DNA of 63,758 bases, the filler included, from Klebsormidium nitens (Eukaryota > Plantae > Klebsormidiophyceae): the NCBI GenBank assembly GCA_000708835.1. It is 6 parts of 6 records of this genome, joined end to end, with 100 filler letters (N's around TTAATTAATTAA, not from the genome) between each part and the next. Parts side by side here need not be neighbours in the genome. Positions count along the whole stretch, not along the records: positions 1 to 2,468 come from DF238681.1; positions 2,569 to 16,291 come from DF238058.1; positions 16,392 to 20,900 come from DF238496.1; 3 more parts are not named here. One strand, written 5' to 3'. A model generated the notes under the pieces. The model was given only the letters and a program-made list of their open reading frames with translations, did no database searches and was not told where the DNA came from. The position numbers and the translations under genes were made by a program. Positions 2,437 to 23,847 of this stretch are shown one piece after another (positions within the stretch are counted from its first letter, which is position 1; each line of letters opens with the position of its first letter).

Positions 2437-2581
2437 CTCTTCTTCAAGATGTCAAGGATCCAGATGAGNNNNNNNNNNNNNNNNNNNNNNNNNNNNNNNN
2501 NNNNNNNNNNNNTTAATTAATTAANNNNNNNNNNNNNNNNNNNNNNNNNNNNNNNNNNNNNNNNNNNNTATTAGCGACTCA

Positions 2582-3679
2582 ATGTCCACGAGAGTCTTTC
2601 AAGGGCCAAATCATCAGCGTAAGACGTTGCTTATGGAGTTCCCAAAACTGAGGAGGTTGCTCGAACTCAAGGAAGCCCAAGATGGTTCGAATCCCACAGT
2701 GCGAACAGAGTCCACGTTGATTGTCTACATCCGCCAGCTTCGCACCATATTCGGTACCGTCCATCCAAACAAACAATTACATGATGAGGATTCAATTGAT
2801 TGGATAGAAGATCATGGAAAGGTTATAAAAGCGATCGAGGGCTTAACGGATTCGAAGGGCGAGCCCCTCAAACCGCTCACAAAGGGTTGCTATGCAGCCC
2901 CCTTTTCAATTCTCGCTCAAAAAAAAGGTTTTGTTGACGCACACAAAGCTTACAGTGACTACATTGAAGCAAAAAAGCCTTCGGAAATCGAGCTCGACCA
3001 AACGATGCAATGTAAAACGGATAAGGAGATACAGCAGTGGGTTCCATGGAACGACATTCTGAAGGTCAGAGATCACCTCGATCAGATCATCACACGAACC
3101 ATTGTGGACAAGTTTGAACAAGGCCGACCAATGACCCGTAGTGATAAGCAGCTCATCAATGATCATCTGATATTGGCCCTATATACGATGCCTCTGGGGC
3201 CAGTACGGAACGAGTTTGGTAGCTGTCGGATTCTGATGCAAGAAGATATTGCCGATTTTGACCCCAAAGCCGGCGATATCAACTCATGTTTGCTAACGAA
3301 GGATCCAAAGCAGTGCCAATTTATTATAACGAAACATAAGACGCTCAACAAGGTTGGGATCAGAAGATTGCACATTCCCGAAACACTGATTAAGGTCATT
3401 GTACGGAGCTTCAATCTCTGTCCAAGGAACTATCTGGTCATGAAACGTCACTACCTCGGCTTCAAGGACGAACCAATCACCAACTTCACACCTGTGCTGA
3501 ACGACCTCGGGCAACGACACTTTGGTAAGAATCTTTCGTGTACCCTTCTGCATCATATATCCCATATAGAACTCACACCCGGTTTGGGTTCACGAGGCGA
3601 TGTTCGAAAGAAGTGCGAATTTATAGGACACTCACTTTCGACCGCACTGAATCACTACGAACGACGATGGTCACCCTAA
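2582..3679 (+). CDS. Tyrosine recombinase/integrase of the type seen in virophages, Polinton-like viruses and NCLDVs; one catalytic Arg substituted
   Basis: Intronless 365 aa. Motifs: LALYTMPLGPVRNE (Arg I), KHKT (Lys), LLHHI (where LRH is expected) and IGHSLSTALNHY (His/Trp, catalytic Tyr at 3656-3658). Family assignment is from motif recognition only. Confidence 0.8.
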   Translation: MSTRVFQGPNHQRKTLLMEFPKLRRLLELKEAQDGSNPTVRTESTLIVYIRQLRTIFGTVHPNKQLHDEDSIDWIEDHGKVIKAIEGLTDSKGEPLKPLTKGCYAAPFSILAQKKGFVDAHKAYSDYIEAKKPSEIELDQTMQCKTDKEIQQWVPWNDILKVRDHLDQIITRTIVDKFEQGRPMTRSDKQLINDHLILALYTMPLGPVRNEFGSCRILMQEDIADFDPKAGDINSCLLTKDPKQCQFIITKHKTLNKVGIRRLHIPETLIKVIVRSFNLCPRNYLVMKRHYLGFKDEPITNFTPVLNDLGQRHFGKNLSCTLLHHISHIELTPGLGSRGDVRKKCEFIGHSLSTALNHYERRWSP

Positions 3680-3863
3680 TCGACTTCAAAATCCTTGAGA
3701 TGCGTGACCACAAAACTGCGATATCATGTCATGCGACTCGGGTCTTTCTATAAACAGCTAGCGAGTGCCTTTCTTGCAACGGTGAGAGGCACGAGCGGAT
3801 ATCCGTGCGTTTGAAGGTTCGATTTTTTCTGACTCCAGACCATAGAGGCAACCGGGCCCCAAC

Positions 3864-4115
3864 ATGGAGTCGAGCATCCACAACCACTCGTCACCAAGCG
3901 TGTGCCCTCATTGCATGGAGGCTGTAATCTACAAAGCAGAGCATCAAAATAAGAAGCGGGCGTACAGTAAATCGTATTACGCAATACATAAGGACGAGAT
4001 ATTGCTCCGGAGAGCTCTTGAACGCGAAGAGCATGGCGAGAAGCTCTCCAAACGCACAAGGGACCGACTTTATAAGGCGAAGATTACTACTAGCCCTATG
4101 ATTCGGTCGTATTAA
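3864..4115 (+). CDS. Small basic protein (83 aa) with CxxC and a KRAYSKSYYAIHKDEI helical motif, virus-like
   Basis: ATG-initiated and co-oriented between the recombinase and the primase. It is Lys/Arg-rich, and similar short motifs occur in small proteins of large DNA viruses. Function unknown. Confidence 0.5.
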   Translation: MESSIHNHSSPSVCPHCMEAVIYKAEHQNKKRAYSKSYYAIHKDEILLRRALEREEHGEKLSKRTRDRLYKAKITTSPMIRSY

Positions 4116-4349
4116 GCTGACAACTCGATTTGAAGGAATGAGTTTAAACGGACTACCAGATCCCATGAAGCCCTGAGGTCAAAATGGCTTCACGGTAATC
4201 CGTCACGCACCACGTTTTTTCAGGAGTTGAAAATCTGATGAGGCGTCATGACACGAACCGCGCTTTGAGTGCCGCCGCGTTTTAGGCTGCCAAAAAATTT
4301 GTACCCCTGAAACATAGGGGTATGTTGACCTTAATCGGACTGAGTTGAA

Positions 4350-7188
4350 ATGGCGAAACATTTCACGACCTTGCGCGAGAGGGCCTCTATGCCGTCCCGG
4401 CAAAGGTCGTACGCGAAGAAAACGGGAGCAAGAAAGTCCGGGGAACGATGCCGCATGCGAAAGGTGACACGGCCATCAGATCGAAATCCGAATGGAATGC
4501 TGCACGCGGAAGGATTTCGGAATTCATTGAGGAGCGAGGGTACAACTTTGCGGCTACAAAATGTGGTGTCATTTCCGATCTCTTTGTGCTTGACGTCGAC
4601 ACTGCAGATAAGCCCGATGAAGACATCATGGCCGGCATGCCCCTCTGGCAGCGTTTGATTGCAGAAAATGGGGACCCTCCCACCCTACGAGTGTCTACGC
4701 TCAGTGGAGGGCTTCATTATTACTTCTTACTGGGAGAATCGCTCAACAACGGGCTAAAGTCAGGGAAGGATTTTGTCAGCGTGGACTTCGACGGCCAGCT
4801 TTACGGGATTGACGGCCGCGGCGAGGGCGGCATCGCCTTTTGCCCACCGAGCACCCTAGGAGACGGGTTGGCATACAAATGGAACACGGCACCTATCAGG
4901 GCCAACATCAAGCCCGCCCCCGCGTGGGTGATCGAATCCATCAACGGCTGTGCAAAACGCGCGGGTCAAATGAGTGTTGCGCCAACTTTGAGCTGCAGAT
5001 TTGATGATACCGCAATGGTGGGGGGGTTTGAAAGTGAAAAAGACGAAGTGCCTGATTTGGGCACCGGCGAATCCGGCGAGTCGTGCATCGACGAGAGCTC
5101 ACTAACCCCCCGTGACGCTGAACCCGCCGAGAGCAAGATCGCGGACGGTATGATGAAGCTATTACGAAACGACGGACTTGACTCTAACGTCCGTTTCTCC
5201 GGCAAGGTCACTCCGCGTGGATCGGACGGCACTTTCTACTCGTTCGTTTGCGACGGGCCACGGAAATGCATACACGGCCATCGGCATCACGGAAGCAACA
5301 ACTTCACCCTCATAAAGCGTGGGTGGACCGTCATGTACCGGTGTTTTGGCGCCGAATGTTCAGATAAGCCGCTCAAGGAGCTAGGGAACCTCGGCCTTGC
5401 CGTGTCCTTGCTTGATGCAAACCAGGGAAGCTGCATCCAACGCACGATAGAACGATGTTCCCAGCCAACTGCGGGGCAGGCTTATCGAAGTCTGAGTTGC
5501 AGGCGCATCTGAATCTGATCAGGCGTAACGTGACGCAGCGCTATCGAGGCATGGCTGGCATCTTCTCTGCCATGCACCTCATCGATGGACGCATTCTAGC
5601 TCAGGAGAAAACGTTTCAATACTGGACTGGCCGCCGGTGGATTACCGACAATGCGTTTCACGTTCAAAGTGTCTTTAGCAGCCACATGTCCCGGATCATG
5701 AGCTGGTATGCAAACCAGAGAGCATCCGCCTACAAGAAAGAGATCCACGCCCAAATGAGAGCCTCGAAGACCTGGGGAGATGTAGCGCTGACCCCGGAGT
5801 CCGATCTCCCGGAGTGGGCCTCAAATCCAGATACCGACGAGGAGAAGAAAGCGTGCGCTGCTGCGTGGAAGGTCGTTAATCGAACGTATCCGCTTCTGGC
5901 CAAAGGCGACCTGGTCGACCTGACTAGAGGCAGCGAAGTCCGTGTCTGCCTGGAATTCGTTTTCAACAGTCTCCAGGCTCCCGAGGAGCTGGGTGCCCTG
6001 ATGGACATTGCGAATCCGTTCTTGTTTGCGTGCGCCAACGGGGTCATTGATACCGAGACGGGGGTCTTGCAAGCGTTCCATCCTGCGCACCTATGTTCGC
6101 GGGCGTCCAAGGCGGCTTTTCGCGGCCTGCCGAAAGGGGGAAGTAGGTTCGAGCGATTCCATCTTGACAGCTTCAACGGAGACAGAGAGGTTCTCGACTG
6201 GTACCAACTCTTTAGTGGGTACTGCATGACGGCTGATACGTCGGAGCACATATTCCTAATCAAACACGGATCGGGGGCGAATGGCAAGAGCATGACCCGT
6301 TTGGCGATGTTCAAGGTGCTGGGGCAATACGCTGTGGTCATGTCGGAGGATTGCATCATCGAGGCAGGGAAGCGGTCGGCTGGAGCGGCGAGCAGTCACA
6401 TAATGGCACTCAAAGGTGCTCGGGCTGGCGACTGTGACGAATCAAACGAGAGAGCAAGAATGAACGAGGGCATAGTGAAGGGGCTTTCTGGGTCGGATAC
6501 AACTACTGCGCGTGAGCTTCAATCGCGACAGGAAACATTCCAGCTTAGTCACAAAGCGATATTGAACACGAATTTTCGACCCATCCTTGAAAACGTGGAT
6601 TATGCCCTCAGTCGACGCATGGCCATCCTCCCAATGCTGGTCACCTTCAAACCCCCAGAACAGCTCGACCTCAGCAAGCCCCGACAGAAGGCCATGGATC
6701 CAACGCTAGAAGCCTATCTAAAGAGCGATTTGGGTCGAGAGGAGGGTCTCTCGTGGTATGCAGAGGGAGCCAGAAAGTACTTTGAGCTGAAGCGTACCAA
6801 CCCGAATAGCCCTCCTCTAAAGCGCCGTCCACGCATTATGGTAGAAGCAGGCAAGGCCTACGAGCAAGACTCAGACATTGCCATGCGGTGGATCATGGAT
6901 CAACTCGAGTTCGAAGATATCGAGCCGGGAGCACGGCCGACTTGGCACCTAGCTCTCGGAGAAAGGCTAGGGGGAGCGTTCAGAGCATGGTTGCGGGAGG
7001 AGGATCTCACGAGCTCGCTTTCGGCAACGGCTTTAAAGAAGCGGATCGTTTTATACGCGGATGGAGCAAACCGGGTATTAGAAGATGGTCGGTTTACGGA
7101 TAGGCAGATACAGGAACGGGGGCAATTCAAGGGGCTGGCGGGAGTTCGCCTAAAGCCCGGCTGCGAGTACGAGGAGACGTATAACTAG
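4350..7188 (+). pseudogene. Bifunctional Prim-Pol + Zn finger + D5/P4-type SF3 helicase + winged helix (~940 aa when repaired), with two apparent 1-nt frameshifts
   Basis: Prim-Pol motifs LFVLDVD, TLSGGLHYYF, IDGRGEGG...PPS. Zn finger C...H.H.SNN...YRCF...C. D5_N motif FACANGVID. Walker A GSGANGKS, Walker B DCDES, motif C ILNTN, C-terminal FKGLAGVRLK. Frames 4448-5512 and 5455-7188 overlap, and adding 1 nt at ~5419-5423 joins them. The Prim-Pol-like N-terminus (GLYAVPAKVV...KK) is open back to 4349, one nt out of frame with ATG 4350. Confidence 0.85.
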
Positions 7189-7301
7189 TGGGCCGAGTAT
7201 GCTATGGCCGTGTTCCTATCATATTGACCGGACGGACACATTACGACATGAAAGTGCCGAAATGAACAAATTTTGTTTGCTCATCTATGCTCATATCAGC
7301 C

Positions 7302-7651
7302 GCAGACCATAAGTCCAAAAGACCATAATATTAAGTCAAATCAATTTCAGATTTTATATACTCAGCCATACTCCAGTGCCACCATTTCTATAATGAAAAA
7401 GACCTGGAATCACGGTCTTCTGGGCTTTTGGTCTGCATTCGGAATGCGCCATGATCGGGCGTTGGCATGAATCATTGGTGGAGGGCTCGCGTATATGCTC
7501 ATATCGGTCGCAGATTATAAGTCCAAAAGACCATAATATTAAGTTGAATCGATTTCAGATTTTATATACTCACCCATCCTTCATTGCCAACATTCCTATA
7601 ATGAAAAAGACCTGGAATCACGGTCTTCCGGCTTCCGGGCTTTTGGTCTGC
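7302..7651. promoter_or_regulatory. Two tandem origin-like units (inverted 8-bp iteron triplets around an AT-rich core)
   Basis: Forward gca-GACCATAA-GTCCAAAA-GACCATAA at 7302-7328 and reverse ggtc-TTCTGGGC-TTTTGGTC-tgc at 7414-7436. The pattern repeats ~208 bp later (7510-7651). The repeat structure is seen directly; origin function is inferred. Confidence 0.6.
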
Positions 7652-7880
7652 GCTCAAAATGCATCATGTGGATGTTTGACTGACATGAGGCCATTCGGCC
7701 GCTTGCATGAATCACTCATGATGCCCCCCCACCTTGCCGTACTTGCATAGACTAGCCGCGTGTCATAGGTTGAAAACGACATATGGCTATAAACACGGGA
7801 AACGCATTCTCGATAACAGATTCGAGCTTATATAGTGGTGGTATTGCACATCATTCTTGGAAGCCCTTTAGAAAGCAGCG
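7460..7880 (+). repeat. Left copy of a ~0.41 kb imperfect direct repeat flanking the cargo gene
   Basis: It begins cgttggcatgaatcattggtggagggctc, ends tttagaaagcagcg, and is collinear with 10095-10499. Confidence 0.9.
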
Positions 7881-8081
7881 AAACCTTACGGGGCTAGGTG
7901 GATTTTGGTGCTAAAGATCATCATATCCAAATTGCAGTGCCCCTACTTCGACCTTCAAACGTGCACATGTATATTTTTGCAGGCTTTCAATGCATCAAAA
8001 GCTTTTTATTGAGGGTTTGCCAGCAACATAGTTGGGCCAAAGGGAAAGGTCTTGAATGCACAGAGTCGTTCTACTCAATTT

Positions 8082-9548
8082 TCAAGCATCGCAGAAGGTT
8101 GCTAATGTTTCTTCCACAATAGCCACTTCTACATCAGTTCCATAATAATGTGCCTGGTCTGGACTGCTGTACATAGCATATGGGGTGCTGATGCCAAAAC
8201 CATCCACAACGGGGATGCTGTAATTAGACATAATTTGCTTGCTAAGCTTGTCCCAATATCGAAAGCGTTGTTGCGTACGCCAATCCTTTGTGTCAACAAA
8301 CCACTTCTTTCTAGGTGACGTCGGAAGAGGAATCGCCATGATTCCTTGGAAAGCCACCACTAAGTCGGACGGCATGACTTTGCTCGAATTGAGCTCAAGT
8401 GAGTGGGCCCTTCTCCTGTTGCTGCGCAACACTTGCAAGTGCTTTGCAACTTCATGCAACCTCTCCACATACTTCTCCGTGGTCCAGTGACCACCCAGCG
8501 ATTCGCCAGCAGCCGGCCAGTGACCAATGTTGAAGTAAATAATGTCTACCAGAGACCACCAAGTTTCATTCCTTTTAAGCAGCGCCTCCAAGAAAACATC
8601 CTGCTCAAATATAAGTCGAAGGTGCTCCAGATCTTGGGCACCGTGCTGGAACTTTTGACGAGCAGTCTTTTGGATGATATTCTGTAGCCGCTTTCCAAAC
8701 GCATTGTACGTATAGCGCATCTGGCTATCCCCAGTAAATACTGCTGTTCGGTTGCTAGCTTCCAGCCATGCGGAAGCTGAGTGATGACAAAGCTCGCTGG
8801 ACCGTCTAGAACTGAACCAGGTAAACTGCTCGTATAGGGCAGACCCTGTGCAATTTATATTTGTCACTGGCCACTGCGTCGCATTAAGCCAGTAACCAGG
8901 ACCTGGAAGATTGGCCTCCAAGAGTTGCAAGACTGCTTTGTCTGCGGTTTCGATCGGGGTAAGTCTTTTAGGTAGGGTCAGATGAAGCACTAACCGTTTC
9001 TCAAGAACGGGCGACTCGGTGACAAGATCGTCAAAGCCGCTGTAATTGCCATATAGATGGTACAGACTCAGCTCGTGACTGGCAAGTGGGCCTGGGATCA
9101 AGTGTATGTTAATCTGATACGAGCAATTCCCCAAGTACTTTGCTTCGTTGGTCCCCATCCGCTGGCTAGGCCCATCAACTATAAGGTAAAACGTGTCTGG
9201 ACCCTGTTCCTGCTCAGCCAATTGCTGATGAAGGGTATGTGGCGATACCACAAGTTGCCGGTCCACTTCTTTGCATCTTTCCACTCCTTCCAAAGGCAAG
9301 GGCTCAATAAAGAGGCTGGAAACGAGGTCTGTCTCTGTGCATATCTTGACAATTGACATCCTTGGCAATGTCACATAAAAATGTTGGCAGCTTTGCTCAT
9401 TATATTGAACCAATTCATTGGATGCCCAATCACTAAATCTCAGCAAGCTGGCATGTGGACTAAAGTGCACTAGGAGGAAGACTGAAGAAGCGAAAAAAGC
9501 CAACATGAAAATCGGCTTCCATGTTGTTCGCCGCCGCAAGTAATCCAT
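8082..9548 (-). CDS. Intronless SGNH/PC-esterase (NXPE/TBL-like) protein with an N-terminal membrane anchor; putative polysaccharide O-acetyltransferase or esterase; element cargo
   Basis: 488 aa ORF. N-terminal hydrophobic helix (IFMLAFFASSVFLLV), GDS motif (FTGDSQMR), YFNIGHW, C-terminal DxxH (SPDQAHY), several N-x-S/T sites. Confidence 0.75.
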   Translation of the reverse strand: MDYLRRRTTWKPIFMLAFFASSVFLLVHFSPHASLLRFSDWASNELVQYNEQSCQHFYVTLPRMSIVKICTETDLVSSLFIEPLPLEGVERCKEVDRQLVVSPHTLHQQLAEQEQGPDTFYLIVDGPSQRMGTNEAKYLGNCSYQINIHLIPGPLASHELSLYHLYGNYSGFDDLVTESPVLEKRLVLHLTLPKRLTPIETADKAVLQLLEANLPGPGYWLNATQWPVTNINCTGSALYEQFTWFSSRRSSELCHHSASAWLEASNRTAVFTGDSQMRYTYNAFGKRLQNIIQKTARQKFQHGAQDLEHLRLIFEQDVFLEALLKRNETWWSLVDIIYFNIGHWPAAGESLGGHWTTEKYVERLHEVAKHLQVLRSNRRRAHSLELNSSKVMPSDLVVAFQGIMAIPLPTSPRKKWFVDTKDWRTQQRFRYWDKLSKQIMSNYSIPVVDGFGISTPYAMYSSPDQAHYYGTDVEVAIVEETLATFCDA

Positions 9549-10094
9549 CTCTCAGCTTTGATGCTATCAAGTTCTTTCCAACAGCTTGCAGATCCCCGGT
9601 TATAAGTGGGCTTGTCGGAGAGCTTTTTACACAACTCTTTACCCCCACACCGGCTTCGGGTTCTCCATGCTAATCAAGAATGCTCAGGATGTTTTAAGAA
9701 CTAGAACGAAATATTTCCGATCGGGCCGACGGCCGTCGATGGGCACCCTGCGTCGACGTTCGTGCAAATAATATTTCTGCGGGTTTCATTTACGGTTTCA
9801 TACGGTTTCATCAATACCAAGCTTTAGCTTTTAATTCCTGTTGAAGTCCAGTCAGCAGTATTTCGCACCGCACGTTTCAAAAAAGACTTTGACATGGAGA
9901 GGTTGACACAAGATGCATCAAGTAAAAGCTTAGCAGGCGCTATAAAATCCGCAGCGGCGAGAAGAGCTGTGCGCGGACAATGGTCTTTTGGACTTCTGGT
10001 CTGCGCCCGGAATGCACAAAGGCAGTTCGGAGCATAGTTTAGATTCCATTGACACATTGACTGGATGTTTACCTAGCGCATGAAGAGGGCGGGA

Positions 10095-10499
10095 CGTTGG
10101 CATGAATCATTGGTGGAGGGCTCCCGTATATGCTCATGTCGGTCACAGACCATAAGTCCAAAAGACTATATTTCTAAGTTATTTCGATTTAAGATCTTAT
10201 ATTGTACCGCGAACATTCCAACAAGGGAAAAGACCTGGAATCATGGTCTTCTGGGCTTTTGGTCTGCGCTCGAAATGCATCATGAGAATGTTTGACTGGC
10301 ATGAAGCCAGCCGGGCGGCTTGCATGAATCATTCATGATGTCCCCCCACCCCTTGCCGTACTTGCGTAGACTAGCCGCGTGTTCTAGTGTCGTTGAAAAC
10401 GCCGTATGGCTATAAATACGGGAAACGCCTTGTCGATAACGGATTCGAGCTTGTATAGTGGATTGCATATCATTCTCGGAAGCGCTTTAGAAAGCAGCG
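10095..10499 (+). repeat. Right copy of the direct repeat, containing one full origin-like unit (10146-10267); an extra reverse iteron array lies just upstream at 9982-10004
   Basis: Collinear with 7460-7880. Forward array acaGACCATAAGTCCAAAAGACT, reverse array ggtcTTCTGGGCTTTTGGTCtgc. Confidence 0.9.
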
Positions 10500-10568
10500 C
10501 AACATTACAGCCGTACACCTTGAAGTTCAGTAGCCATGGCTTCTACGGGTTCTGACATTAGAAACCTT

Positions 10569-13500
10569 CTACACTAATAGAAGCCGGTTGCGTACAGCCG
10601 ACCGCCACAAATCCGCTCGCCCCGCGATCCGCAGCTTCGGTTCGTCAACTCGCGCGAGTTCGCCGTTTCGTCCAGAAATAAGATTAGCCAGAATAACCAT
10701 AAAGGCGGCGAGGCTAGAATACCATGCAAGCGTACGGAATTGTACAAGGAACGAGTTGCAGCTTTCGACCGCTGACGTGTTCACCCAGCGGACGGCGTCG
10801 TAGTAATCTGGACGTGACAAACCAGGGTTTAGCCGACATATTCATACCCACCGGATCGAAGGTGCAGAAATCACACCCAGATCACGTGCCACGTCAGCGA
10901 GGTCAACGGTGAGTCAATAGTCGCTTCCTTCGTATAGAAAGCTACTCGCTGTCGTTTTTGACTGCCACGTCGCGACCAACCAACGAATCTCATCTACCGC
11001 CAACGACCCTGCCAACTTCTGATGCAAATCGGCCATCTTTTCCAGCATTGCACATGCATCTTGTTGCTCACCAGGGTTAAACGATGGTCCACACTTGTGA
11101 GCCTCCGTGGATGTGCGCTGGAAATGAAAACTGCAGTGAATTGCGGCATGGGTTTGGAACGGGGCCGGCATCTCGACAATCGAAAGGCACGGTGATTCAG
11201 TGCCGCAGTGGCCCAAACTATTTCCACCACGTGCAGACCGTTGCATGCTGAAATTCAAGTGTGCTGCACGGACTTCCATTTTTTTGCCGTCACACTAACC
11301 GGTCGACGAGAAAGCGCACGTCCGCAAAGTGCGCAGGCTCTCTTTGCATCGCGTACGCCTGCAGCTTGCATGCGTTGTCGTAGACAAGAAAGCGCGGAAG
11401 ATGCCGCCGTTGAAGGCGGGTGTAGAGGACGGCAAAGGGATCCCTCGGCGACTCCCCTCGCAACATGACGTGCCACCCGTAGATGACACGATGGGGGCAG
11501 CAGAAAACGAAGCCGCCCTTCGTGTGTTGCTGCAGTCGCTTGGCCTCCTTAACTTTGCCTGAATCGAGGGCAATCTTGGCATCGAACTCGCCAATCGTGA
11601 GACCGCTGCGGCAACGGTGCTCCTCGTGGCGCTCGAGGGACCGTCCCAACTCGTCTTCGAACGGGCGGTACTGGGGCAAAGGCCTCTTCTGCTGCCACCC
11701 TGGCAGCGGATAGCAGCCAAGGTCTTGCTGCTCGCGGCAGTAGGGGTGATCATGGGGAAAGGCGGCTGACTCTGAGCCGTCGATCTCGAGCCCGAGCCTG
11801 CCGTTCAACAACTCCTGCTCTGCCGGCAGCAGTGGGTACCGCTGCGGGGCCGGTGGGGTAAGGGTTTCGACCCCGGGGAGAAGGGAGTTGGCACGAGCGG
11901 CCCAGAAGTCGAAGGCTTGTCGCTGCTCGACACTCAGGGGGTTCGGTTGGCGCTGCAGCCACATGCACACGTCCAACCCCTCGATTGCCGACAGCGCCCA
12001 CCCCGCACGCCCTACTCCGAGGCCCACGGCCCCCCTCCCGAATAGCGTCAGGCGGTAGAGGTGATGCAGCGCAGGATGGAAGAAGGCGGGGAACCGGTCG
12101 CCATAGTGGTCTAGAAGCCGGCGCAAGATGGGGGCGTGCTCCGCCAAGAGAATTCTGTCGTGGTCGTTTGCGGCTTCCCCGAGCAACAGTTTTCGAACCA
12201 CGCCCAGCGCCCGGCCATGCTGGATGAGGTTCGAGTCGTCCGATACGGACAGCGGCGCGCCAAGACTGTAGAGCAGTTCGGACCACGTCCCTGGGCAGCT
12301 CGGGGGCCAGTGGGGCTCGACCTGCATCGCCTCGATCTCGATGCTCTCGAGCAGCTCCAGCACGGCTTTGTTCTTGGAGCGCATCTGGCCGACCTGGTCC
12401 GTCCGAATCCGCCGCCGCCAATGGAGCAACACGGGGTCGCCATCCGCATCGTCCGGATCGGCAACAAAGTCGGTGACGAATTGCACGTCGTCCCGGTCCA
12501 ATGCGACCTGCATCGAGTCACGACGGGCGTCAGAGCAAGTCTTCAGCATGCCGTATGAATGAACGGCGCACTAGCCTCCAGTGCTCACTGCCTGCCACGT
12601 GGCAAGTTGTGCGGCGTGTTTCGGACGGTCCTCAAAGCATGCATGCGCGGATCGGACGGCTGTCAGAGTGTGATAAAAGGGCATTCCAGGTTGAAACACT
12701 TGGAGCCCAATCATCGGGGAAAAAAAAACTTTCTAGATTCAAAAAGTCTATAGGTTATAGAACGCTTTTTTTTCCCATGTCGATCTGCGCTTATGCGCTT
12801 AGTCATTTATTGATCACTCTGGGCCAGATACTACCAATGACTCGCTCTCCGGGCCTGCATATCTGACGGAATCTCTCGTATGCCTGCAGCATGATCATAT
12901 TGATAGAGTCAAGATCGCCACGTGGTGCTCAAGACGTGCATGGTCCGAATGAGACTCACCAGCAGCTCTTCGTACTCTCGCGCGGTGAGGTGCTTTCCGA
13001 ACTCGACGTCAGCCGGATGGTGTCCACTGAACCGGGCCAGCAACGTTCGGAGCTCCGGTTGATGCACGAGGCGCCGCTTCAGGCCAGCCCCCGCAAGCGA
13101 CGCCGCCAGGTAGTTGCCCCCTGGCTCCATGACTTTCTGAACGTTGACGTCGAGGAAGTCTCGACTCGGAGCCGTGAACGGCCGAACCTGGGCCGCGCCA
13201 GTACCCGCAAGCCCGCCTTTTTGCCGGCCCCCATCCGCACAAGCGAGCCCCGCAATGCCGTCGTAGAGTAGAACCTGCAGGGAAGCTCAAGAGCCTTGCG
13301 TCCGTCTTGACACAGAGCCCGCCGTTGCCACATCAGCAGAAAGCTAGTCAAAAACGCCACTCCCTTGTCTATGTAAAGCATGTCGATGAGTAGAGCCACT
13401 TACCGCCGGATGCGGCCCGCATAGGCTGCAGCACTCCAGGATCTGGCGGCCGCACAGCCTGAAAAAGCCCAGGCTCGCCTTGCTCCAAGTCTCCTCCGAG

Positions 13501-16288
13501 AGAAGGATGGCGTTGGGCTTAAAGAATCGACGGGTGGCGTTCTGAGCAGAGACGATTCCTCCGAAGGCCGAGCCCGAGTTTTGAACGGACCGCAGCAGCA
13601 GCTGGCATGCGGCCTGCGTGACAACAACCCCTCGCGTCCAAGCGTAGAGGCCGAGCGCCTCTCCGTTGAAGTGGACTGTGTGCTTCTCGTGGCAGCCGCA
13701 GCAGTAGATTCGCAGCTGCACCTGGGCACCGCAAGAGGGGAGTCTGCTTTTGCCAAGTGCCATTTGCAAACCCGCTTGTCTAAGCCGTTACCAAGCCCCA
13801 GATGGGACGGGAAAAAATAACTGTTGCGATTCAAGAAAACGTATTCATTAGGAATGTTATTTTTTCCCCGTTCGCCTTCCGACTCGATCAAGATTGTCAA
13901 GATTGCTTGACGAAATGCAAGATACCAAACGCTGCAAGACTGCAGGACTTCAAAGCTGCGATCCCTGAGCTTACCTCCTGCGACCACTCTAGAGAGTAGA
14001 TTTGCGCCGTCTGCCATAAGCCACTCCATCCGGTCCCGCAAGGAGGTGGCGCTCTGGGACAAGGCGCCGTGAGGCACTCCAGGGTGCTGAGCTCCTTGAA
14101 GTCTCGATCCGTGAGCTCGCTAACCCTCACGGGACGCCGTAGCAGCGTCACCTCGGGGTCGTGCACGTCCCAGGAGTCCGTTGGGCGAACGAGCTTGGGC
14201 ACCTCCACCTGAACGCCCTCGGCTTCCACTGGCATCACCGCAGCAACACGCATGGGCTCCCCTTGAGTGCACGTGCTCGATGGGCACACGCAACTGCTGC
14301 ACGCTGGAACCAAGAACGGGCCACGCACGCCTCCTGCAACCCCCGATGCGCCCACCCTCGTGTCTCCATTCCCTGCATTCTCCAATTCTGAAACCGGGCC
14401 ACCACCATTGGCGCCACGTGCTTCCCAGTACTTCTTAGTTCGGCGCTTCCCCTTTGCTAGAGGAACGTCCCCCTCTCCCGCCTCTGCTTGCCCCGATCGA
14501 GCCCGTTTCCCACTCGCAGAGGCAGAGTTGCAGCAGCGTGTCGTGCATTTTGCTGCCCCCCAGTGTCGAGTTTGACCCCGCCAAACAACCTCGCATGCTG
14601 CTTGCAGAAGCAACTGTCCCCCTTGCAAGTTGCTTCATGGTGGCCTCCCACAATCAACTCAGCCATGTACTTTTCTAGCCCCAAGTCTGTCGCCCCCTCT
14701 TTGTTCCGCTGCATACAGGACGGGGCCTCAGAGTCAACGTTGCTTTGATGCAAAGCGCCTCCGCTGAGCCCATCTTGGCCGACACTTCCCAAACCCCGCT
14801 TCAGCTGTTCGTTTGAAAAGAAGCTGCCGGCCAACCTCTGCATGCCCCCTTTTCGCTCGAGAGCTCTCTTCGCCTCTTGAATGTGACCACAATCGGCCAC
14901 CCTGCTGCACCCATCCTGCCGCCCCTCACAGTACCAGAAGAAGTCTGCGGTTGCGGAGTAGTGGACCATCGTTCGCTGCGGTGACGGTGACCCAGCATTC
15001 CAGTACACCCCAAAGACCCGCTCAACCGCCTCCTCGCATGGCACCTCCACGACCCTTGCCCCCCGCGGCAAAGACACATGGCTCGCTAGCCTTGACGGCT
15101 CTAGCGCCTGCAGCGCGAGCTTATGGACGCAAGGGGCGTCAAAGTACAGTCGCCCCCGATCGCAAGTGCAGCTTGTTCTCCCCATGGTGTCCCAATAAAC
15201 CGTCTCCAAGAGCGCGCGCACCTTGCTGGGCCGTCCTAGCGGCTTAGACCTCGCGTTGTTGTGATCCCAAGCAGTGGCCAAGTACACTGTGCTGAGAGAC
15301 TCCTCTTCGCCGACACTGTACAAGATGCACTGCCCTGATCTGATGGCGATGATGAACCGGGCAGCTTGTGCAGCGATAGTCAGGCGGCCATCGGCATTGC
15401 GGGCATCCGTGGGCGAAGCTTGGCTCTGCTCCTCCTACATATGTGCAAGGGCAATTGAGTCTTTGACACATCACATATCGACACATGCCAGCCGATCACG
15501 TGGAGTCTGCCAGCTTGAAGAAAACGTCTTCGATCCCGTCTCATTCTGGGAGTATGCGAGTGATTCACAAGTGACACCTCTGGCTCAATACATCGGCAAC
15601 TACATATGAGAAGGACGTACACGCTCTGCCCTCAAACATGTTAACAGAACAGCAAATGTAGGCAGCATATCCTGGACTGCAACCTCAGCAAACGACAATC
15701 AGCAGGTTGAGCAAGGGCACCGTAAGACCCTCCGACCGCTAGGGGCGCCCTCCCTCTTGCGATCTCCCCTGCTTTTCGCCCTCTATTGAGAGCAGCCTCA
15801 GCTGCAGTGCCGCCGCGGCGCCCGCCGAATGCTTGCTTAGCTTGCTCCTCCCTCAGAATGAGGGGCTTCAGCTCTTCTCCTAGCAGCGCTTTCAGCCGAC
15901 ACCATGGCTCTGCTGGTGAGGAGCGCTGAAACCAGATCTCGGCAGGCCCAATCGAATCTACTCTAGCTACGGAGATTGTAAGTCTGTTTGCTGACTCTGA
16001 CACCGGACCGTAATGCCGCCCCACACATTGCAAGCACAGAGGTTGGTCCTTCCGCTGCCCTTTAACCCTAGAGTCTCTCTCAGTGACTGCAAACCCTTTC
16101 AGCGAATGCGACTTTGGAAACGCCAACTGATAACCATCCACAAGCTTTGCAATCAGAGTCTGCCTGCATATGGCGCATTTAGTAGCTAGGAAAACTATCG
16201 ACTCCAGCCGTGAGGGGTCTACCGGTACGATTGAATTACCAGACTGGACCTGCTTCTGGGTCACTGGGTGCAACCGTGATGGTCTCAT
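10569..16288 (-). mobile_element. KDZ transposase gene, copy 2, nearly complete and multi-exon
   Basis: C4 finger (CAIC...CLQC), two SWIM motifs and CxC clusters (YCCGC, CCSLCGPHP). Spliced LLYDG (Asp at 13260-13262), KGGFVFCCPHRVIYG, GESPRD, LVYDNAC, FLVDR^FHF and NTSAVESCNS give the KDZ D-D-E core. Canonical splice sites, e.g. 13404/13274 and 11072/10807. One frameshift in the G6 run at 14556-14561. The 5' end abuts a gap. Confidence 0.92.
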
Positions 16289-16391
16289 TTCNNNNNNNNN
16301 NNNNNNNNNNNNNNNNNNNNNNNNNNNNNNNNNNNTTAATTAATTAANNNNNNNNNNNNNNNNNNNNNNNNNNNNNNNNNNNNNNNNNNNN

Positions 16392-18565
16392 TGGTGAGCA
16401 TGGAGATGCGGCCACTACTTGGGGGGGCGGGTGCACTGCGGGGGGGCATAGGAGTGGTGTCGTTTGCGTCTGTGAGAGTTGCTCCTGCCCTTCGTTGGCG
16501 TGCCTTCACACGGAGGCAGCACGTATTGCCGTCGTCATGCCCATGAGCGCAGAGGGCGTTCAGGTGGAGACTCCAAAGTTAGTGCGCCCAACAGACGGCT
16601 CGGCCGTTCACGACCCTCCTGTCACCCTGCTGAAGCAGCCGGTGAGAGTTAGCCAGCTGACCTTTCACCGCAGGTTGCGCTTGATCGAGCGGACGTACAA
16701 GTCGTCACCGAGTTCATTCCAGACCCTGACGACCCCAACGCGGACTCTGTTCTTCTTCATTGGCGACGACGTCTTCTTCTCGAGCAGACCGGCTTGATTC
16801 GGACCAAAAACCGGGCGTTGTTGGTTCTCATGGAAGGGATCAAGGCAGAGTCTCTGCTGAGCAATCCCGGACAGAGCCCCCCCCGTTGCCCTGGAAGATG
16901 GTCGGAGCTTCTTTACAGCCTCGGCACGCCGAAGTCCGTTCCTGATGATAGCAATATTATCCAGCATGGCAGTGCTCTAGCGGTGGTCAGAAAGCTTCTC
17001 CTGGGAGGAGTGGCGAATCTAGACGACCGTGCCGTCCTGGCTGAGCATTCTCCCATCTTGCGCCGATTGCTAGACCACTACGGGTCCACCTTCCCCACCT
17101 TCTTCCTCCCAACCCTCCACCATCTATATCGGCTCACACTATTGGGCCGCGGAACGGTCGGCCTAGGGGTGGGACGCGCTGGGATCACGCTCTCTACCAT
17201 CGAGGGGCTAGACATCTGCGTTTGGTCAGCGCGAGACAGAGTAGAGCGGCCGCACGCATGGTCCGCGGACCGCCACCAAGCTTTTGCATTTTGGGAGGCG
17301 CGGGCAAATGCTTTGCTACCAGCGGTTGAGCAGCTGTCACAACCGGAAGCTGGGGTCTACCCGCTCTCAGTACCAGAGACAGCGCTTTGGAATGGGCGGC
17401 TAGGCCTAGAAGCAGGTGGAACCATCCCTCCCGATCTACCTCTCGATCATCCCTTCTGCAAAGAACAGCGCGCGCTTGGCTGCTATCCTCTGCCTGGCTG
17501 GGAACAGAAGCGCCCTCTGCCGCAGTACAGACCTTTTGAAGACGAGCTAGGCAGATCCATCGAACGGGCTGAAGAGCATCGATGTAGAGGGGGCTCACCG
17601 TGGGGGAGTTTGACGCTGAGGTCGCGATTCTTAGCAAGTCGAAGTCTGCTCAGCGTCTCCAGAAGCATACCAAAGGGGGCTTTGTGTTCTGCTGTCCCCA
17701 CTGGGTAATTTATGGTTTTCATGCCATGCTTTGGGGGGAGTCGCCGCGCGATCCGTTTGCCGTGCTGTATACACGACTACATCGACACCATCTGCCTCGC
17801 TTTGTCTTCTACGACAACGCTTGCAAGCTGCGAGCCTACTGCATGCGACGCGAGCCGGCTTTTTTCACCGACGTTCGCTTCCTAGTAGACAGGTGAGATG
17901 GAGACACACTCTTTTTGACTTCTTCCGTATTGCCAACACACGACTTTACATCTCTTCAAACGTCACAAATCTGCAACCTTGGTTGGGGCACTGTGGTCTA
18001 GATTCAGCACACTTTGTATATGCCTTGAAACCGCAGAACCTAGACAAGTCCTACGGTCATAGAGCAAACTTTCGAGAATTTAGCCAGTCAAACGCATTGT
18101 CTGATCCCTGACGCCATGCTACCGTGCAACGAGGTTGATTGTTGTCTTGTGAGGTTGCTTTATGTGCACATTGGTTGGCTGACATTGTGAAGATGTTGTC
18201 CGTATGATCACTTCCATAAACGCGTTCTTCTTAAACTAATCTGATATTCGCGCAATGTTGCGTGCAGATTCCACTTTCAGCGAACTGGAGCGGAGGGACA
18301 CAAGTTCGGACCAACATTCAATCCAGATTACTATGACGTAGTGCGTTGGGTTAACACTTCGGCTGTCGAGAGTTGCAATTCTTTTCTCATCAGGTTTAAG
18401 ACGCTAGGCTGGTACTCTGGGCTCGAAGCTTTCATGATTATTCTAGCCAGTTTGGTGAGTGGCCGAAATTCAGAACTTGTGCGGGTAGATGACGCTAAGA
18501 TGAGAGTAGCGGGTAACGTACGCTGGTGGACACCGTTTGTTCGATATTGCCTATTACATGTTTGA
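16392..18565 (+). pseudogene. KDZ transposase copy 3, internally deleted and frameshifted
   Basis: Homologous to copy 2, but jumps from RPVRVSQLT (~16664) straight to the acceptor before VALD (~16671), losing the CxC and YDG exons. Frameshift in the G-run near 17587-17592. YDNAC and NTSAVESCNS are retained. Confidence 0.88.
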
Positions 18566-18633
18566 AAGATAGTCTTCTGGTTTGCAATCAAATGGCTGTC
18601 ACCGAATCAATCTGATGAGGCAGGATGGGATTC

Positions 18634-18996
18634 GCAGACCAAAAGACCAGAAGCCCAAGATTCAATCTTTTTTATTCTACAGAGAGGCACTATGTCATAG
18701 TGTTATTCACTGGGAAACGAAATGAAAAAGATCTAGAATTCTGGTCTTCTGGTCTTTTGGTCTGCAATCATGTATTTGTCATTGATCTAGATCTCTAGTC
18801 TTTGAAACCTAGTCTTTTTGTCTGCAATCAATGAACTAATCCAATGAAGCAGAATAGGATTTGCAGACCAAAAGACCAGAAGTCCGAGATCCTAATTGTT
18901 TCTCATTTCACAGAGTGGCTCTATATGATTGTCTTATTCATTGAAAAATGAAATTGAAAAGATCTAGAATTCTGGTCTTCTGGTCTTCTGGTCTGC
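18634..18996. promoter_or_regulatory. Two origin-like units of inverted GACCAGAA iteron triplets
   Basis: Forward arrays 18634-18660 and 18863-18889, reverse arrays 18739-18765 and 18970-18996 (the last is a perfect TTCTGGTC x3 + TGC). Each pair encloses an AT-rich core of ~80 bp. Function is inferred. Confidence 0.65.
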
Positions 18997-19077
18997 AATC
19001 ATATGGATGTCATCAAACCAATCCAATGAAGCAACACGAAAGCCATGTAACATGCACGAGGTATCGCCGTTGCCCAC

Positions 19078-19830
19078 TCATCCATCTGCCGTTTCATGCA
19101 TAAAATCAGGTTTCAATCGCACGCCACTAAGACCCTTGAATTGCCCTCTATCTTGCACAGATCTATCCGTAAAACGACCGTCTTCGAGTCGATAGTTGGC
19201 TCCATCGGCATAGAGGAGGATGCGTTTTTTCGGGGCTTGAGCGGTCAGAGAACTAGAAATCTCCTCCTCCTCCTTCATCCAAGCTCGAAAAGCATCACCA
19301 AGCCTTTCTCCTAGAGCTAGATGCCATTTCGCACGTACACCCTCTTGCATCTCTTCAAACTCGCAACACTCCTCGATGAAACGTTTGCCAACATTGTTGT
19401 CGTTGACATACGCCTTCAAGGCGTCCTTCATAGCTTTTGGTCGTTTCTCCAGAACAAGAGCGCTTGGATTTGCTCGTTTCAACTCAAAGTAGCGCTTTGC
19501 CCTGGCTGCAATCGATGAAAGTCCATCTTCTCGACCCTCGTCGGACTTCAAATAAGCTTCCAAGGTAGGGTCTTTGGGCTTCTCTCTAGTTTTCCGCGGA
19601 TCAACATCGTCGGCCGACTTGAAAGTCACTGTCATCGGAAGGAGGGCCATACGACGTACGAGACTAAACAAAGTGTTTTCCATGACGGGCTTGTAATTAG
19701 TGTTTAGAATGGCCTTATGGGACACCATAAAGGTCTCTTGCTTGCCTTGAAGCTCTCTTGCCGTGACGGAGCCGCCTCCAGACAACTCCTTGATTGTTGC
19801 TTCGTTAAGGACGGACTTTTTGCTCGACTT
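19078..19830 (-). CDS. D5/SF3 primase-helicase, C-terminal part (5' truncated by a gap)
   Basis: ARELQGKQETF, KAILNTN, RRMALLP and WHLALGERLG...FKGLSGVRLK. Clearly homologous to 5455-7188. The N-terminal residues in the ORF track come from reading across Ns. Confidence 0.9.
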   Translation of the reverse strand, partial: KSSKKSVLNEATIKELSGGGSVTARELQGKQETFMVSHKAILNTNYKPVMENTLFSLVRRMALLPMTVTFKSADDVDPRKTREKPKDPTLEAYLKSDEGREDGLSSIAARAKRYFELKRANPSALVLEKRPKAMKDALKAYVNDNNVGKRFIEECCEFEEMQEGVRAKWHLALGERLGDAFRAWMKEEEEISSSLTAQAPKKRILLYADGANYRLEDGRFTDRSVQDRGQFKGLSGVRLKPDFMHETADG

Positions 19831-19898
19831 NNNNNNNNNNNNNNNNNNNNCACATGTGAAGTAGACAGGCAGCGTGTGACCCTGTCCAACCGTCACAC

Positions 19899-20900
19899 AA
19901 TCAATGAACTAATCCTATGAAGCAGAATAGGATTCGCAGACCAAAAGACCAGAAGTCCGAGATTCTCATTCTTTCTCATTTCACAGAGTGGCTCTATATC
20001 ATTGTCTTATTCATTGAAAAATGAAATTGAAAAGATCTAGAATTCTGGTCTTCTGGTCTTCTGGTCTGCAATCATATGGATGTCATCGAACCAATCCAAT
20101 GAAGCAACACGAAAGCCATGTAACATGCACGAGGTATCGCCGTTGCCCACTCATCCATCTGCCGTTTTATGCATAAAATCAGGTTTCAACCGCACGCCAC
20201 TAAGACCCTTGAATTGCCCTCTATCTTGCACAGATCTATCCGTAAAACGACCGTCTTCGAGTCGATAGTTGGCTCCATCGGCATAGAGGAGGATGCGTTT
20301 TTTCAGGGCTTGAGCGGTCAGAGAACTAGAAATCTCCTCCTCCTTCATCCAAGCTCGAAAAGCATCACCAAGCCTTTCTCCTAGAGCTAGGTGCCATTTC
20401 GCACGTACACCCTCTTGCATCTCTTCAAACTCGCAACACTCCTCGATGAAACGTTTGCCAACATCGTTGTCGTTGACATACGCCTTCAAGGCGTCCTTCA
20501 TAGCTTTTGGTCGTTTCTCCAGAACAAGAGCGCTTGGATTTGCTCGTTTCAACTCAAAGTAGCGCTTTGCCCCGGCTGCAATCCATGAAAGTCCATCTTC
20601 TCGACCCTCGTCGGACTTCAAGTAAGCTTCCAAGGTAGGGTCTTTGGGCTTCTCTCTAGTTTTCCGCGGATCAACATCGTCGGCCGACTTGAAAGTCACT
20701 GTCATCGGAAGGAGGGCCATACGACGTACGAGACTAAACGAAGTGTTTTCCATGATGGGCTTGTAATTAGTGTTTAGAATGGCCTTATGGGACACCATAA
20801 AGGTCTCTTGCTTGCCTTGAAGCTCTCTTGCCGTGATGGAGCCGCCTCCAGACAACTCCTTGATTGTTGCTTCGTTAAGGACGGACTTTTCGCTCGACTC
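19899..20900 (-). repeat. Near-identical second copy of [origin unit 19936-20069 + D5 C-terminus 20151-20900]
   Basis: Offset 1073 bp from 18826-19830, with scattered substitutions and a 3-nt indel. Both copies end at the same D5 codon against a gap. Confidence 0.9.
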
Positions 20901-21509: not shown

Positions 21510-23847
21510 ATGGCCCTCGCGCTGGTCAGAGGTAGCTTGCGAGCTGGTTTCTGCGCCCGTGCTGGTCAGGTTTTTCAAGCAACCTCTGGGGCCTTCGACA
21601 TCGTTGATTCACAAACACTCACCGCAGACTGCAGAATTTCTCAGCAATCGGACGAAGGCAGGACCCTGCGGCTTTCAGAAGCAGGCTTTGCCTTCAGGTG
21701 CGGTCCGGTGATTGCGAACAATGGGTTTGGCAGTCTGCTTTTAAGCGTCAACACTTCTTCAGGGGCATGCAGCTTGTGTCGTCTTCAAAGGATTGCAAGA
21801 GGGAAGCTCTCTCTACTCTTGTCAATGATTGATATCAAACTCAGCGAATCCTCAAGAGAAGTTCTTTAGTGGGGTCTATGCATCTGTGCTCCTAGGTGTG
21901 TGTGCAGTTTCGCTGGCGCTGATATGGTCGAAGTTTTCTCCCGAGATAGCTGTCAGATATCCATCTTCTTGCCAGAGCGCACCTCTGCTATGAAACTTTA
22001 CTTCGTTTGCAAGTTATGCATTGATGAAGCAGTCCACCTATCCTCCTCACAGGGTGTGTCACAAACTTGATTAGGAAGGCGGTTTGCAGGTACTTTTGGA
22101 GCCAACAGAAACCGCACCACTCCATCGAGAACCTCGTTTCTTTCAAGCACCATTGAGCACGATGCCAAATGATCGAGTAGACCCCCAAGTAAATCTATTG
22201 GAGGAATGGCTATCCTAATTTTTGACAGACTAAAGAGTCAGACTTTGATTGGCTTTTCCAACAAATGGGGGGATAATTACTTCAACTATCATACAGATAG
22301 CTCAAGTCTATCGTCTCCCCTGAGCTGTTATCTCATTGACCGCAGGTCATCGTTCCATACGAGCAACCCACAATCTGACGCCACAACTAGCGGCGGTGGC
22401 AGCGCCTCTGCGGCAGAGTTGGAAGAGAAGCGGCGGAGCATCAACAAGATATTGTATCGCTCACGGCAGCGTGGACTGCTCGAACTGGACCTGTTAATCG
22501 GGAAATGGGCCTCCGAAAACGTGCCGCGGATGGACGGGCAGGCAATGGATCACTACACGCAAATACTGGACGAGGTGAGTGCCACGACTTTCACCCATTT
22601 TTAAGTATGTCCTACTGTTTGTTTTCCCGATATGGTCGGTTGGCTGCTGCTCTGCGTTGCTTTTAGTGGTTAGTAGAGAGACTTCTATTGGATCTTACCG
22701 TGTTGGTTGCCAACCTTTCACCTATTGACCTTCTAGAGACCTTTCTTTAGTCGCCTTCACATTTGACTGTGAGGCGTCACCTGCAAAGCAACCCTAGACC
22801 TCTGGTTGACAATTTCGTAGCTTACAAAACAGCCCCCAGATCAAGCGACTGAGAACTCCGTAGCTTCGTGTCTTATGTCAAAGGTTATCCTTTGGCTGTT
22901 GCGTCCAACGCACGAGAAGCAAGTCCTCAGCTGAAGAGATTGAGTTCAATGCAGTGACTTCAGAAAACTTTCGAAGACAAAAGCAGAACTTGGCTCTCTG
23001 CCTGACAATCATGTGGTTTACGAATGCAGAGCAGCACTGCAATTATCATCTTTTGGAGTTCAGACGAACGACTATACACAATTGAAGCGAGATTTCGATT
23101 GTTCCTAGTCAGCAGAAGTCCCAGATTTGAGTGCAAGTTCAACTTATTTGCTCAGTGTCGAGCTGCCCAAGCGGGTCTGAAAAGGCGCATCGGATCACGC
23201 TTGTCATGCGAAGGACCCATATTGCCTCCGGACAACCTCGATAAGAGATGGTTTTTCCATTTTGAGTTTGTGACATGATGCAGTAAGGCTAGCAGGTCGT
23301 AAAGTTTGTGGGTCCGATTTGAACAGTGAGTTATGCTTTGTTTTGCAGGAGAATCCCGATCTTTGGAAGTGGCTCACCGAACAGGCGGAAGCGCCCGCCG
23401 ACCTCAAAACCAACCCGGTGAGTAGGTTTTCGATGAGTACGCGGTTCGTTTTTGCATCTGTAACCACCAATCTTGTAAAGTCAATTATGGATGTGCCCGG
23501 AGTCCCATTCTCCTGATAATGGAGTTGATCGATTTGTTGGGATTTTTAGTCGTTGTGGAAGTCACGCTACTCGCTAGTCAAGCGACTTGCCGTTTTTACT
23601 TTGGGAAAGAAATGTCAAGGTTGTTGAGAGTCATTTTCCCGACAGCACGGTTTCTCCACCTTGCTGAGGATCTTACTATGCCCATGTGGTCAAATGACAG
23701 GTCTTCGAGTCGCTGTGTAAGTACGTTCGCAAGGACCTGGAAGCGAAAGCGGACCCGGCAACTAGGACGGAGCCAGGCAAGGCCTGGGTCCGCGGTTGGA
23801 ACGATTCGGATAGGAAAGTCGGCGGGCCTCCGGCAGGGAATCAGTGA
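21510..23847 (+). CDS. SDHAF2: Succinate dehydrogenase assembly factor 2 (Sdh5/flavinator), 4 exons
   Basis: Exons 21510-21697, 22346-22574, 23349-23417 and 23701-23847 splice in phase with GT-AG. Motifs KILYRSRQRGLLELDLLIGKW and ENPDLWKWL, plant-type tail WVRGWND...GNQ. Confidence 0.93.

Follow-up and report, generated by a model that had tools for sequence, protein, structure and literature searches.

The self-copying DNA transposons known from eukaryotes are chiefly of two kinds, PolB-based Polintons and rolling-circle HUH elements. Here we describe a candidate of a different composition in Klebsormidium nitens, a green alga kept in culture as a model for the early relatives of land plants. 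The DNA analysed (the window) is a stretch of 63,758 nucleotides from assembly GCA_000708835.1, made of six parts joined end to end by filler. Three times in this window the gene of a KDZ (Kyakuja-Dileera-Zisupton) transposase and the gene of a fused Prim-Pol/D5/SF3 primase-helicase end facing each other across a block of short repeats (iterons), and in the most complete copy a tyrosine recombinase (YR) gene precedes the helicase gene. Our data suggest, with a probability of roughly 0.47, that these parts form a capsid-less Klebsormidium element in which a module of Polinton-like virus (PLV) type stands tail to tail with a KDZ gene, is copied from the iterons, and re-inserts by means of KDZ.

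In PLVs, an end module consisting of a YR, a primase-helicase, and inverted repeats has been described (AHEV_PLV2, CBEV_PLV1, and Gezel-14T; PMC11296320). KDZ transposons have defined ends and 7-8 bp target-site duplications (PMC12730594). The origin of SaPI satellites contains six to twelve iterons directly after rep, which face each other across an A+T-rich centre and are recognised by the winged-helix end of the helicase (PMC9371898). The Klebsormidium locus resembles the PLV end module in its order of YR, primase-helicase, and inverted repeats and in a YR whose nearest clusters are those of Preplasmiviricota. Because the YR is present in the same module, the helicase half corresponds to the known PLV end module. 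Unlike PLVs, the Klebsormidium copy shows no capsid or packaging genes, and an intron-bearing KDZ gene lies beyond the repeats.

The loci were treated as separate scaffolds: locus 1 is the segment 2569-16291, locus 2 lies around 18565/19078, and locus 3 around 62923/63434. Nothing was inferred from adjacency across the joins, which are five identical 100-base linkers at 2469, 16292, 20901, 44939, and 62255 with stops in all frames; the scaffolds that they join are not sorted by size, and there is also one 20-base gap. An earlier note on this DNA had proposed convergent KDZ and helicase genes, and the stop codons do face each other at 7188/10569, 18565/19078, and 62923/63434, each pair being contained in a single gap-free stretch. 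Each of the window's three KDZ 3' ends is thus opposed by the 3' end of a helicase gene. Iterons had also been placed about 40-70 bp past the KDZ stop at two loci, in agreement with a first full arm at 68 bp in locus 2, where a partial arm is present already at 6 bp, and at 37 bp in locus 3; the corresponding distance in locus 1 is 301 bp. The second helicase piece, at 20151-20900, duplicates locus 2 at 97.7% identity and is not counted as a fourth instance. For locus 1, contigs of sequencing run X1 (possibly the source sample and thus not independent) match 5528-7417 and 7599-12850 letter for letter, and since they span both the helicase-repeat and the repeat-KDZ junctions without a differing letter, this continuity is no scaffolding artefact. 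KDZ or helicase pieces occur in four of the six window segments, for which a real cluster and an effect of scaffold ordering are both possible.

We found that the repeats are intact between both genes at all three loci. At loci 1 and 2 the repeat unit is 123-142 bases long and consists of opposed arms of three 8-base iterons flanking a core of 65-71% A+T; over all loci the cores have 64-71% A+T, compared to 48.5% across the window. Locus 1 contains two such units on its left side (7302-7436 and 7510-7651, with inverted arms of three 8-base iterons and cores of 67-68% A+T) and, on its right side (9980-10508), a half unit at 9980-10016 and a third unit at 10145-10267. The locus 2 block (18572-18996) contains partial arms at 18572 and 18814 and full units at 18634-18765 and 18863-18996, with hairpin z-scores of -10.1 for the former, a near-complete palindrome, and -5.3 for the latter. 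The centre of the former, the most symmetric unit, is a perfect 7-base inverted repeat around one base (18686-18702), which is not kept in the other units. A different motif with a TGATACA core makes up the locus 3 block (62961-63436), where three inward-facing sets have core sizes varying from 12 to about 80 bases and the last copy overlaps the helicase stop codon; the distance from the helicase stop to the nearest repeat is 113, 81, and 0 bases at loci 1, 2, and 3, respectively. All 12 window matches of the locus 1/2 motif fall in the spacers or in the duplicated piece of the locus 2 spacer (0.61 expected), and 10 of the 14 window matches of the locus 3 motif fall inside the 476 bases of 62961-63436 (5.06 expected in the whole window). 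Integron-like or hairpin-telomere units were set aside, given that only two of five units fold strongly and that protelomerases rank far below Cre/Xer.

Repeats exceed chance at all loci but do not form simple arrays, and the 3380 bp spacer of locus 1 also holds a gene of 489 codons. This intron-free passenger gene (8082-9548, minus strand; frame 8082-9551) lies between two direct repeats of about 440 bp that each include a unit; the left copy (7457-7889, unit plus tail) is 82% identical to the right copy (10092-10508). The gene likely encodes an SGNH/NXPE-like hydrolase with an N-terminal hydrophobic stretch and a putative GDS motif. The protein has no Pfam or NCBIfam match; in the Atlas it scores 0.94-0.96 to unnamed eukaryotic clusters, and NXPE rows at 0.88-0.89 are leads only. 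None of the sequencing runs listed is recorded as RNA; two that are guessed to be RNA have contigs covering the gene.

The primase-helicase gene of locus 1 (4349-7188, plus strand) encodes Prim-Pol (Pfam E 1e-15), D5_N (E 5e-7), and SF3 helicase domains and belongs to what we call clade 1. It is split by a frameshift near 5420, where run contigs of the same sample carry the same letters; its relatives are single proteins of 931-971 aa. Helicase relatives score above the cut-off of TIGR01613, and the helicase profile matches the solved giant-virus primase-helicase C962R (E 5e-18). At locus 2 the 3' part of a clade 1 gene (19078-19830, minus strand) is cut by the gap; it is 82% identical to the relative P0095 and matches PHROG primases at E 1e-21. 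A near-copy of 18825-19830, comprising one repeat unit and the helicase 3' part, follows at 19898-20900 (minus strand) and is either a recent paralogue or an assembly doublet, with 20 substitutions and one 3-base indel over 1006 columns. Between the two helicase pieces there are 3 synonymous and 10 non-synonymous changes in 249 codons, a ratio of 0.96, as under neutral drift. Only the C-terminal 107 residues of the locus 3 gene, a clade 2 Prim-Pol/D5/SF3 helicase, are in the window (63434-63758, minus strand), and these are 94% identical to P0202 and 59% to P0205, both of which carry D5_N and TIGR01613. Compared directly with clade 1 helicases this fragment gave no significant match; it was placed by a wider search with 11 matches of E<=0.001 among 1.84 billion representatives, the last two seemingly unrelated. 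Helicases of clades 1 and 2 are 31% identical over 861 columns with the same architecture, and in both clades the reading frames are open and the domains and Walker A motifs preserved.

KDZ is encoded by a single spliced gene of about 1380 codons with a cysteine-rich start followed by SWIM, CxC4-like, and KDZ core regions. Its Pfam matches in the window, PF18758 (KDZ) at E 0.03 and PF18717 (CxC4) at E 0.015, are both under the gathering cut-offs, as are those of its relatives at E 4e-5 to 1e-2. The clade A gene of locus 1 (10569-16279, minus strand) has at least six introns, a frameshift near 14560, and a start codon at or past the scaffold end; it is 48-79% identical to the relative P0128 (1377 aa) in seven colinear pieces, and the gaps between them have GT..AG ends. 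Locus 2 holds a clade A 3' part (16459-18565, plus strand) that lacks residues of about 620-878 of P0128 and is frameshifted near 17600. Locus 3 holds the 3' exons of a clade B gene (62355-62923, plus strand), the last of which is 77% identical to P0049 and 53-54% to loci 1 and 2. The 5' half of a fourth KDZ gene, again of clade A, lies on a scaffold of its own (136-2436, minus strand), 32 bases from the linker, and is 67-78% identical to residues 1-668 of P0128. The acidic motifs L.DG, YDNAC, and NTSAVES are conserved and present at locus 1, and they may represent the KDZ acidic catalytic triad. Between window copies, synonymous differences are near saturation (pS 0.71-0.88) and non-synonymous differences lower (pN 0.22-0.35), and these copies show purifying selection on both KDZ and helicase. 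The two guessed-RNA runs gave only two short 90% pieces on KDZ and none on YR or helicase, which has no bearing on expression.

The YR gene (2582-3679, plus strand) encodes a 365 aa protein of PLV/giant-virus type in which H replaces the second catalytic R in the window copy. It has 13 relatives at 53-91% identity. The motifs R, K, LLRH, GH, and Y occur in relatives, and LLRH is kept in 31 of 32 motif-bearing YR pieces. Sequence searches of Pfam, NCBIfam, PHROG, and PDB left the protein unnamed, and in the Atlas it scores 0.97-0.98 to Preplasmiviricota clusters. A structure search with its model (pLDDT 71, against 35 for a model from one sequence alone) returned XerH, Tre, and Cre as top PDB rows at E 2e-3 to 8e-3, none at E<=0.001, and 13 viral rows at E<=0.001, the best being viral integrases at E 5e-7. 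As modelled, the YR is a protein of Cre/Xer fold, and it is a second candidate integrase beside KDZ. Downstream lies a gene for a small conserved basic protein of about 84 aa (3864-4115, plus strand) with weak PHROG matches (E 0.002-0.04) and 49% identity to P0164, which is one of several 80-aa proteins on contigs equal in base count to YR or helicase contigs. Since in P0167 (473 aa) a frameshifted YR reads into the small downstream gene, fusing both, the order and closeness of the two genes are confirmed. The earlier note had named the KDZ and D5 helicase genes correctly but had overlooked the YR, the small conserved gene, and the passenger gene of about 1.5 kb. The locus 1 copy is broken in three genes (YR active-site change, helicase frameshift, and KDZ frameshift), and the locus 2 copy is also broken, its KDZ gene having a large deletion.

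The metagenome collection yielded no KDZ or helicase relatives, and nothing close to the helicase, YR, or KDZ turned up when the viral collection was scanned. One viral-collection scan gave five loci of 26-29% identity that all lacked a match to YR or KDZ, including the phage-like L002 with terminase and PolA; a prokaryotic locus, L006, was dismissed as a chance match.

As a proxy for linkage among relatives, we used public contigs of equal base count carrying different element genes, which gives no order or strand. The sizes of 29 clade 1 helicase, 41 YR, 49 clade A KDZ, and 36 more distant KDZ contigs were compared; 14 NCBI-named K. nitens rows and 11 distant helicase matches at 22-32% were left out, and all counts are lower bounds, taken from at most 15 members per cluster for 30 proteins. 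Shared sizes numbered at least 16 for helicase and YR, at least 9 for helicase and clade A KDZ, at least 8 for YR and clade A KDZ, and at least 5 for all three, where chance gave a mean of 0.10 and a maximum of 3 in 20,000 jittered sets. One contig of 7918 bases holds helicase residues 142-953 together with KDZ residues 903-1211, and a back-to-back layout of the two genes does not fit it because about 9.4 kb would be needed by the locus 1 distances. In one expanded family YR, helicase, and KDZ are all 82-96% alike for most pairs, and over 9-12 contigs the linked genes have correlated pairwise identities (rho 0.71-0.77; Mantel p 0.001, 0.0002, and 0.004).

In the helicase tree (28 rows), clades 1 and 2 are sisters relative to 15 outside homologues with support of 99/96. 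The KDZ tree (28 rows) separates clades A and B, and partner-bearing KDZs occur in all three clade A subgroups. Loci 1 and 2 pair KDZ A with helicase 1, and locus 3 pairs KDZ B with helicase 2 and the other repeat motif. That none of 29 clade B KDZ contigs matched a helicase or YR was rejected as a control, as only clade 1 helicases and their YRs were probed. Taken together, KDZ, YR, helicase, and repeats are quite probably one co-inherited unit. The earlier idea of one composite element with an origin-like spacer thus finds support in equal-size contigs, a co-expanded family, the matching two-clade split, and a SaPI-type origin anatomy; the repeats may be an internal origin or, less probably, joined element ends.

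If the element copies itself, the C-terminal domain of the helicase would bind the iterons and load on the A+T-rich core, like SaPI Rep, and Prim-Pol would prime, with extension by host polymerases or by Prim-Pol itself. The YR may excise circles or resolve multimers, and such excision or resolution would explain the tandem repeat units and the passenger gene between direct repeats. KDZ would insert linear copies by way of ends located 5' of the YR and KDZ genes, at the points where the scaffolds stop; repeats that stay intact between the genes are expected if integration occurs elsewhere. Three scaffold ends lie no more than about 30 bases from a YR or KDZ start, which suggests that repeated sequence sits at these three ends. 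No capsid, packaging ATPase, or protease frames occur between YR and KDZ in the 13.7 kb of 2569-16291, and among the 62 window frames scanned there was no Pfam match to a protein-primed PolB or an rve-type integrase. It is possible, although we hold this tentatively, that the element represents a new class of self-synthesising eukaryotic DNA transposon: capsid-less, with its own iteron origin, a Prim-Pol/SF3 helicase, a resolving recombinase, and a KDZ integrase, present in two old lineages with different origins and picking up genes between duplicated origin units.

Several observations weigh against a self-copying KDZ element. Element ends, terminal inverted repeats, and target-site duplications were not found, the most complete copy filling its scaffold from 13 bases before the YR to the KDZ start. 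Among PLVs, AEP replicases are associated with YRs and DDE enzymes with PolB (bioRxiv 10.64898/2026.10.13.758929), a pairing that favours the YR as integrase. Size matching may count re-assemblies of one sample. A neighbouring helicase had been expected for KDZ copies, and at least 12 of 28 clade A KDZ contigs of at least 7 kb do match a helicase or YR contig in size, but 16 of these 28 are without a helicase or YR among the matches listed. The 12 KDZ proteins named as K. nitens all carry scaffold numbers other than those of the two named helicases; in that annotation the window's own YR and locus 1 KDZ are not among the matches, and 7 of the 12 KDZ proteins carry their scaffold's first gene number. 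The KDZ and D5 phylogenies agree in their two-clade splits, yet the identity correlation vanishes once the expanded family is collapsed to one member (rho -0.18 to 0.66; 4-6 contigs), and there are mosaic pairs, such as locus 1 and contig 10087 with YR 91% but helicase 74% identical. Furthermore, the clade B/clade 2 pairing is known from one locus.

The chief rival explanation treats the repeat units as joined ends, combining an att site with the origin, at which the YR integrates a circle. YR and KDZ would then stand back to back in mid-element, the convergent junctions would come from tandem copies or from integration elsewhere on the circle, and KDZ would be a second integrase or an accessory. 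PMC11296320 proposes the PLV inverted repeats by primase-helicase and YR as recombination substrate and origin, and the AEP-YR association mentioned above points the same way. So do the 19898-20900 copy, which loses its likeness to its twin exactly at the outer edge of an arm and continues with 47 unrelated bases, the near-complete palindrome at 18634-18765, the inclusion of a unit in the direct repeats flanking the passenger gene, and, if that join means anything, the KDZ and YR 5' ends that face each other over the first linker. Against this, tandem or permuted copies would be required at all three window loci and for the 7918-base contig, no split half-sites were observed on either side of a back-to-back element, and the variable core sizes of locus 3 are unlike a fixed recombination site. 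We consider joined ends unlikely, though deserving of serious attention. A cut-and-paste giant KDZ transposon with an anciently captured viral end module as fixed passenger, with no need of a replicon, is improbable. PMC12477816 describes giant KDZ elements that measure 10-30 kb and contain accessory genes and fixed nested insertions, and the locus 1 copy has defects in all three of its enzymes, but a mere passenger would have decayed, whereas the helicase clades have kept frames, domains, and Walker A at 31% identity, LLRH persists in nearly all YR pieces, and the repeat motif changed along with the helicase clade.

The copies could also be fragments of a longer endogenous virus, Polinton-like or giant, that acquired KDZ and has its capsid genes beyond the scaffold ends. 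Such a virus would account for a YR resembling Preplasmiviricota and giant-virus proteins and for a helicase architecture equal to that of giant-virus and PLV primases, and the scaffold ends do hide the flanks. The spliceosomal introns of KDZ, the missing virion genes between YR and KDZ, and the lack of close helicase, YR, or KDZ relatives in the viral collection nonetheless make this origin quite improbable. That two independent elements are involved, with KDZ inserting preferentially beside a YR-helicase origin and always in the same orientation, we regard as very improbable. YR-helicase linkage is tighter than helicase-KDZ linkage, and the loss of the deep identity correlation after collapsing the expanded family is compatible with targeting; however, the 6-68 bases from KDZ stop to repeats at loci 2 and 3 leave little room for a transposon end, and the co-expanded family, like the pairing of clade A with 1 and of clade B with 2, speaks for joint inheritance.

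The window as a whole is eukaryotic DNA and also contains spliced host genes (PPR and Sdh5) and LINE reverse transcriptases. Sdh5 (SDHAF2) is a spliced gene at 22391-23790 (plus strand), the PPR gene is spliced and lies at 25068-29053 (minus strand), where a sequence of about 85 bases repeated at 26568, 26717, and 27023 probably marks the exons that encode its repeats, and an exon of a DUF2358 gene lies at 38418-38891 (minus strand). A long LINE-type element occupies 49211-56193 (plus strand), with a 1654-codon frame encoding endonuclease, reverse transcriptase, and RNase H followed by a second frame, of 721 codons, that contains zf-RVT; in many LINE groups an RNase H is uncommon. A second non-LTR reverse transcriptase frame of 632 codons adjoins a scaffold end at 42836-44734 (plus strand). 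The stretch 61400-62254, also at a scaffold end, is G+C-rich and non-coding, with short palindromes and no similarity elsewhere in the window. No Rfam families were found in 2570-20900.

If the preferred reading of a self-copying KDZ element is true, the combination of a spliced KDZ gene with an internal iteron origin and a primase-helicase of satellite type would constitute another virus-to-transposon route. It would also provide an extant case of a PLV replication module that functions in the absence of a capsid, an idea for which the arguments have so far come from viral genomes (PMC11296320; bioRxiv 10.64898/2026.10.13.758929). The two lineages with different repeat motifs offer a built-in swap test for the protein that reads the repeats. 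In the literature covered, which excluded Repbase, subscription papers, and supplementary transposable-element libraries, we found no description of KDZ with a primase-helicase or YR, nor of Zisupton in Klebsormidium. Both halves are known, and their stable union without PolB or capsid appears to be undescribed. Provisionally, we class the element as a capsid-less replicating transposon, which falls outside PLVs and Polintons for want of their defining genes and whose assignment to KDZ is likewise provisional.

The element resembles KDZ transposons, including the giant algal ones, in a transposase of about 1380 aa with SWIM, CxC4-like, and KDZ regions, in its passenger gene, and in its algal host (PMC12730594, PMC12477816). 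It differs from the KDZ elements known from these sources in carrying a primase-helicase, origin-like repeats, and a YR, and no TET/JBP gene was seen. With SaPI/P4-type satellites it shares, as an anatomical resemblance only, a fused primase-SF3 helicase (TIGR01613) followed by opposed iterons around an A+T-rich centre; unlike them, it has a eukaryotic host, several tandem origin-like units, and a transposase with introns. Transpovirons and Polintons likewise keep replication and integration genes together, the former without a morphogenetic module, but the Klebsormidium element combines an AEP-SF3 replicase with a DDE enzyme, against the PolB-DDE and AEP-YR pairings described in the same source (bioRxiv 10.64898/2026.10.13.758929). 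Giant repeats flanked by Plavaka and rich in YR genes are a loose parallel (PMC11244446). A DDE transposon stably fused to genes for viral replication is also found in Teratorn, a union of piggyBac and a herpesvirus (PMC5601938, PMC10175614). However, Teratorn measures 180 kb and keeps a virus genome, while the Klebsormidium element, at about 11-14 kb, joins a PLV-type module to KDZ with no virion genes seen.

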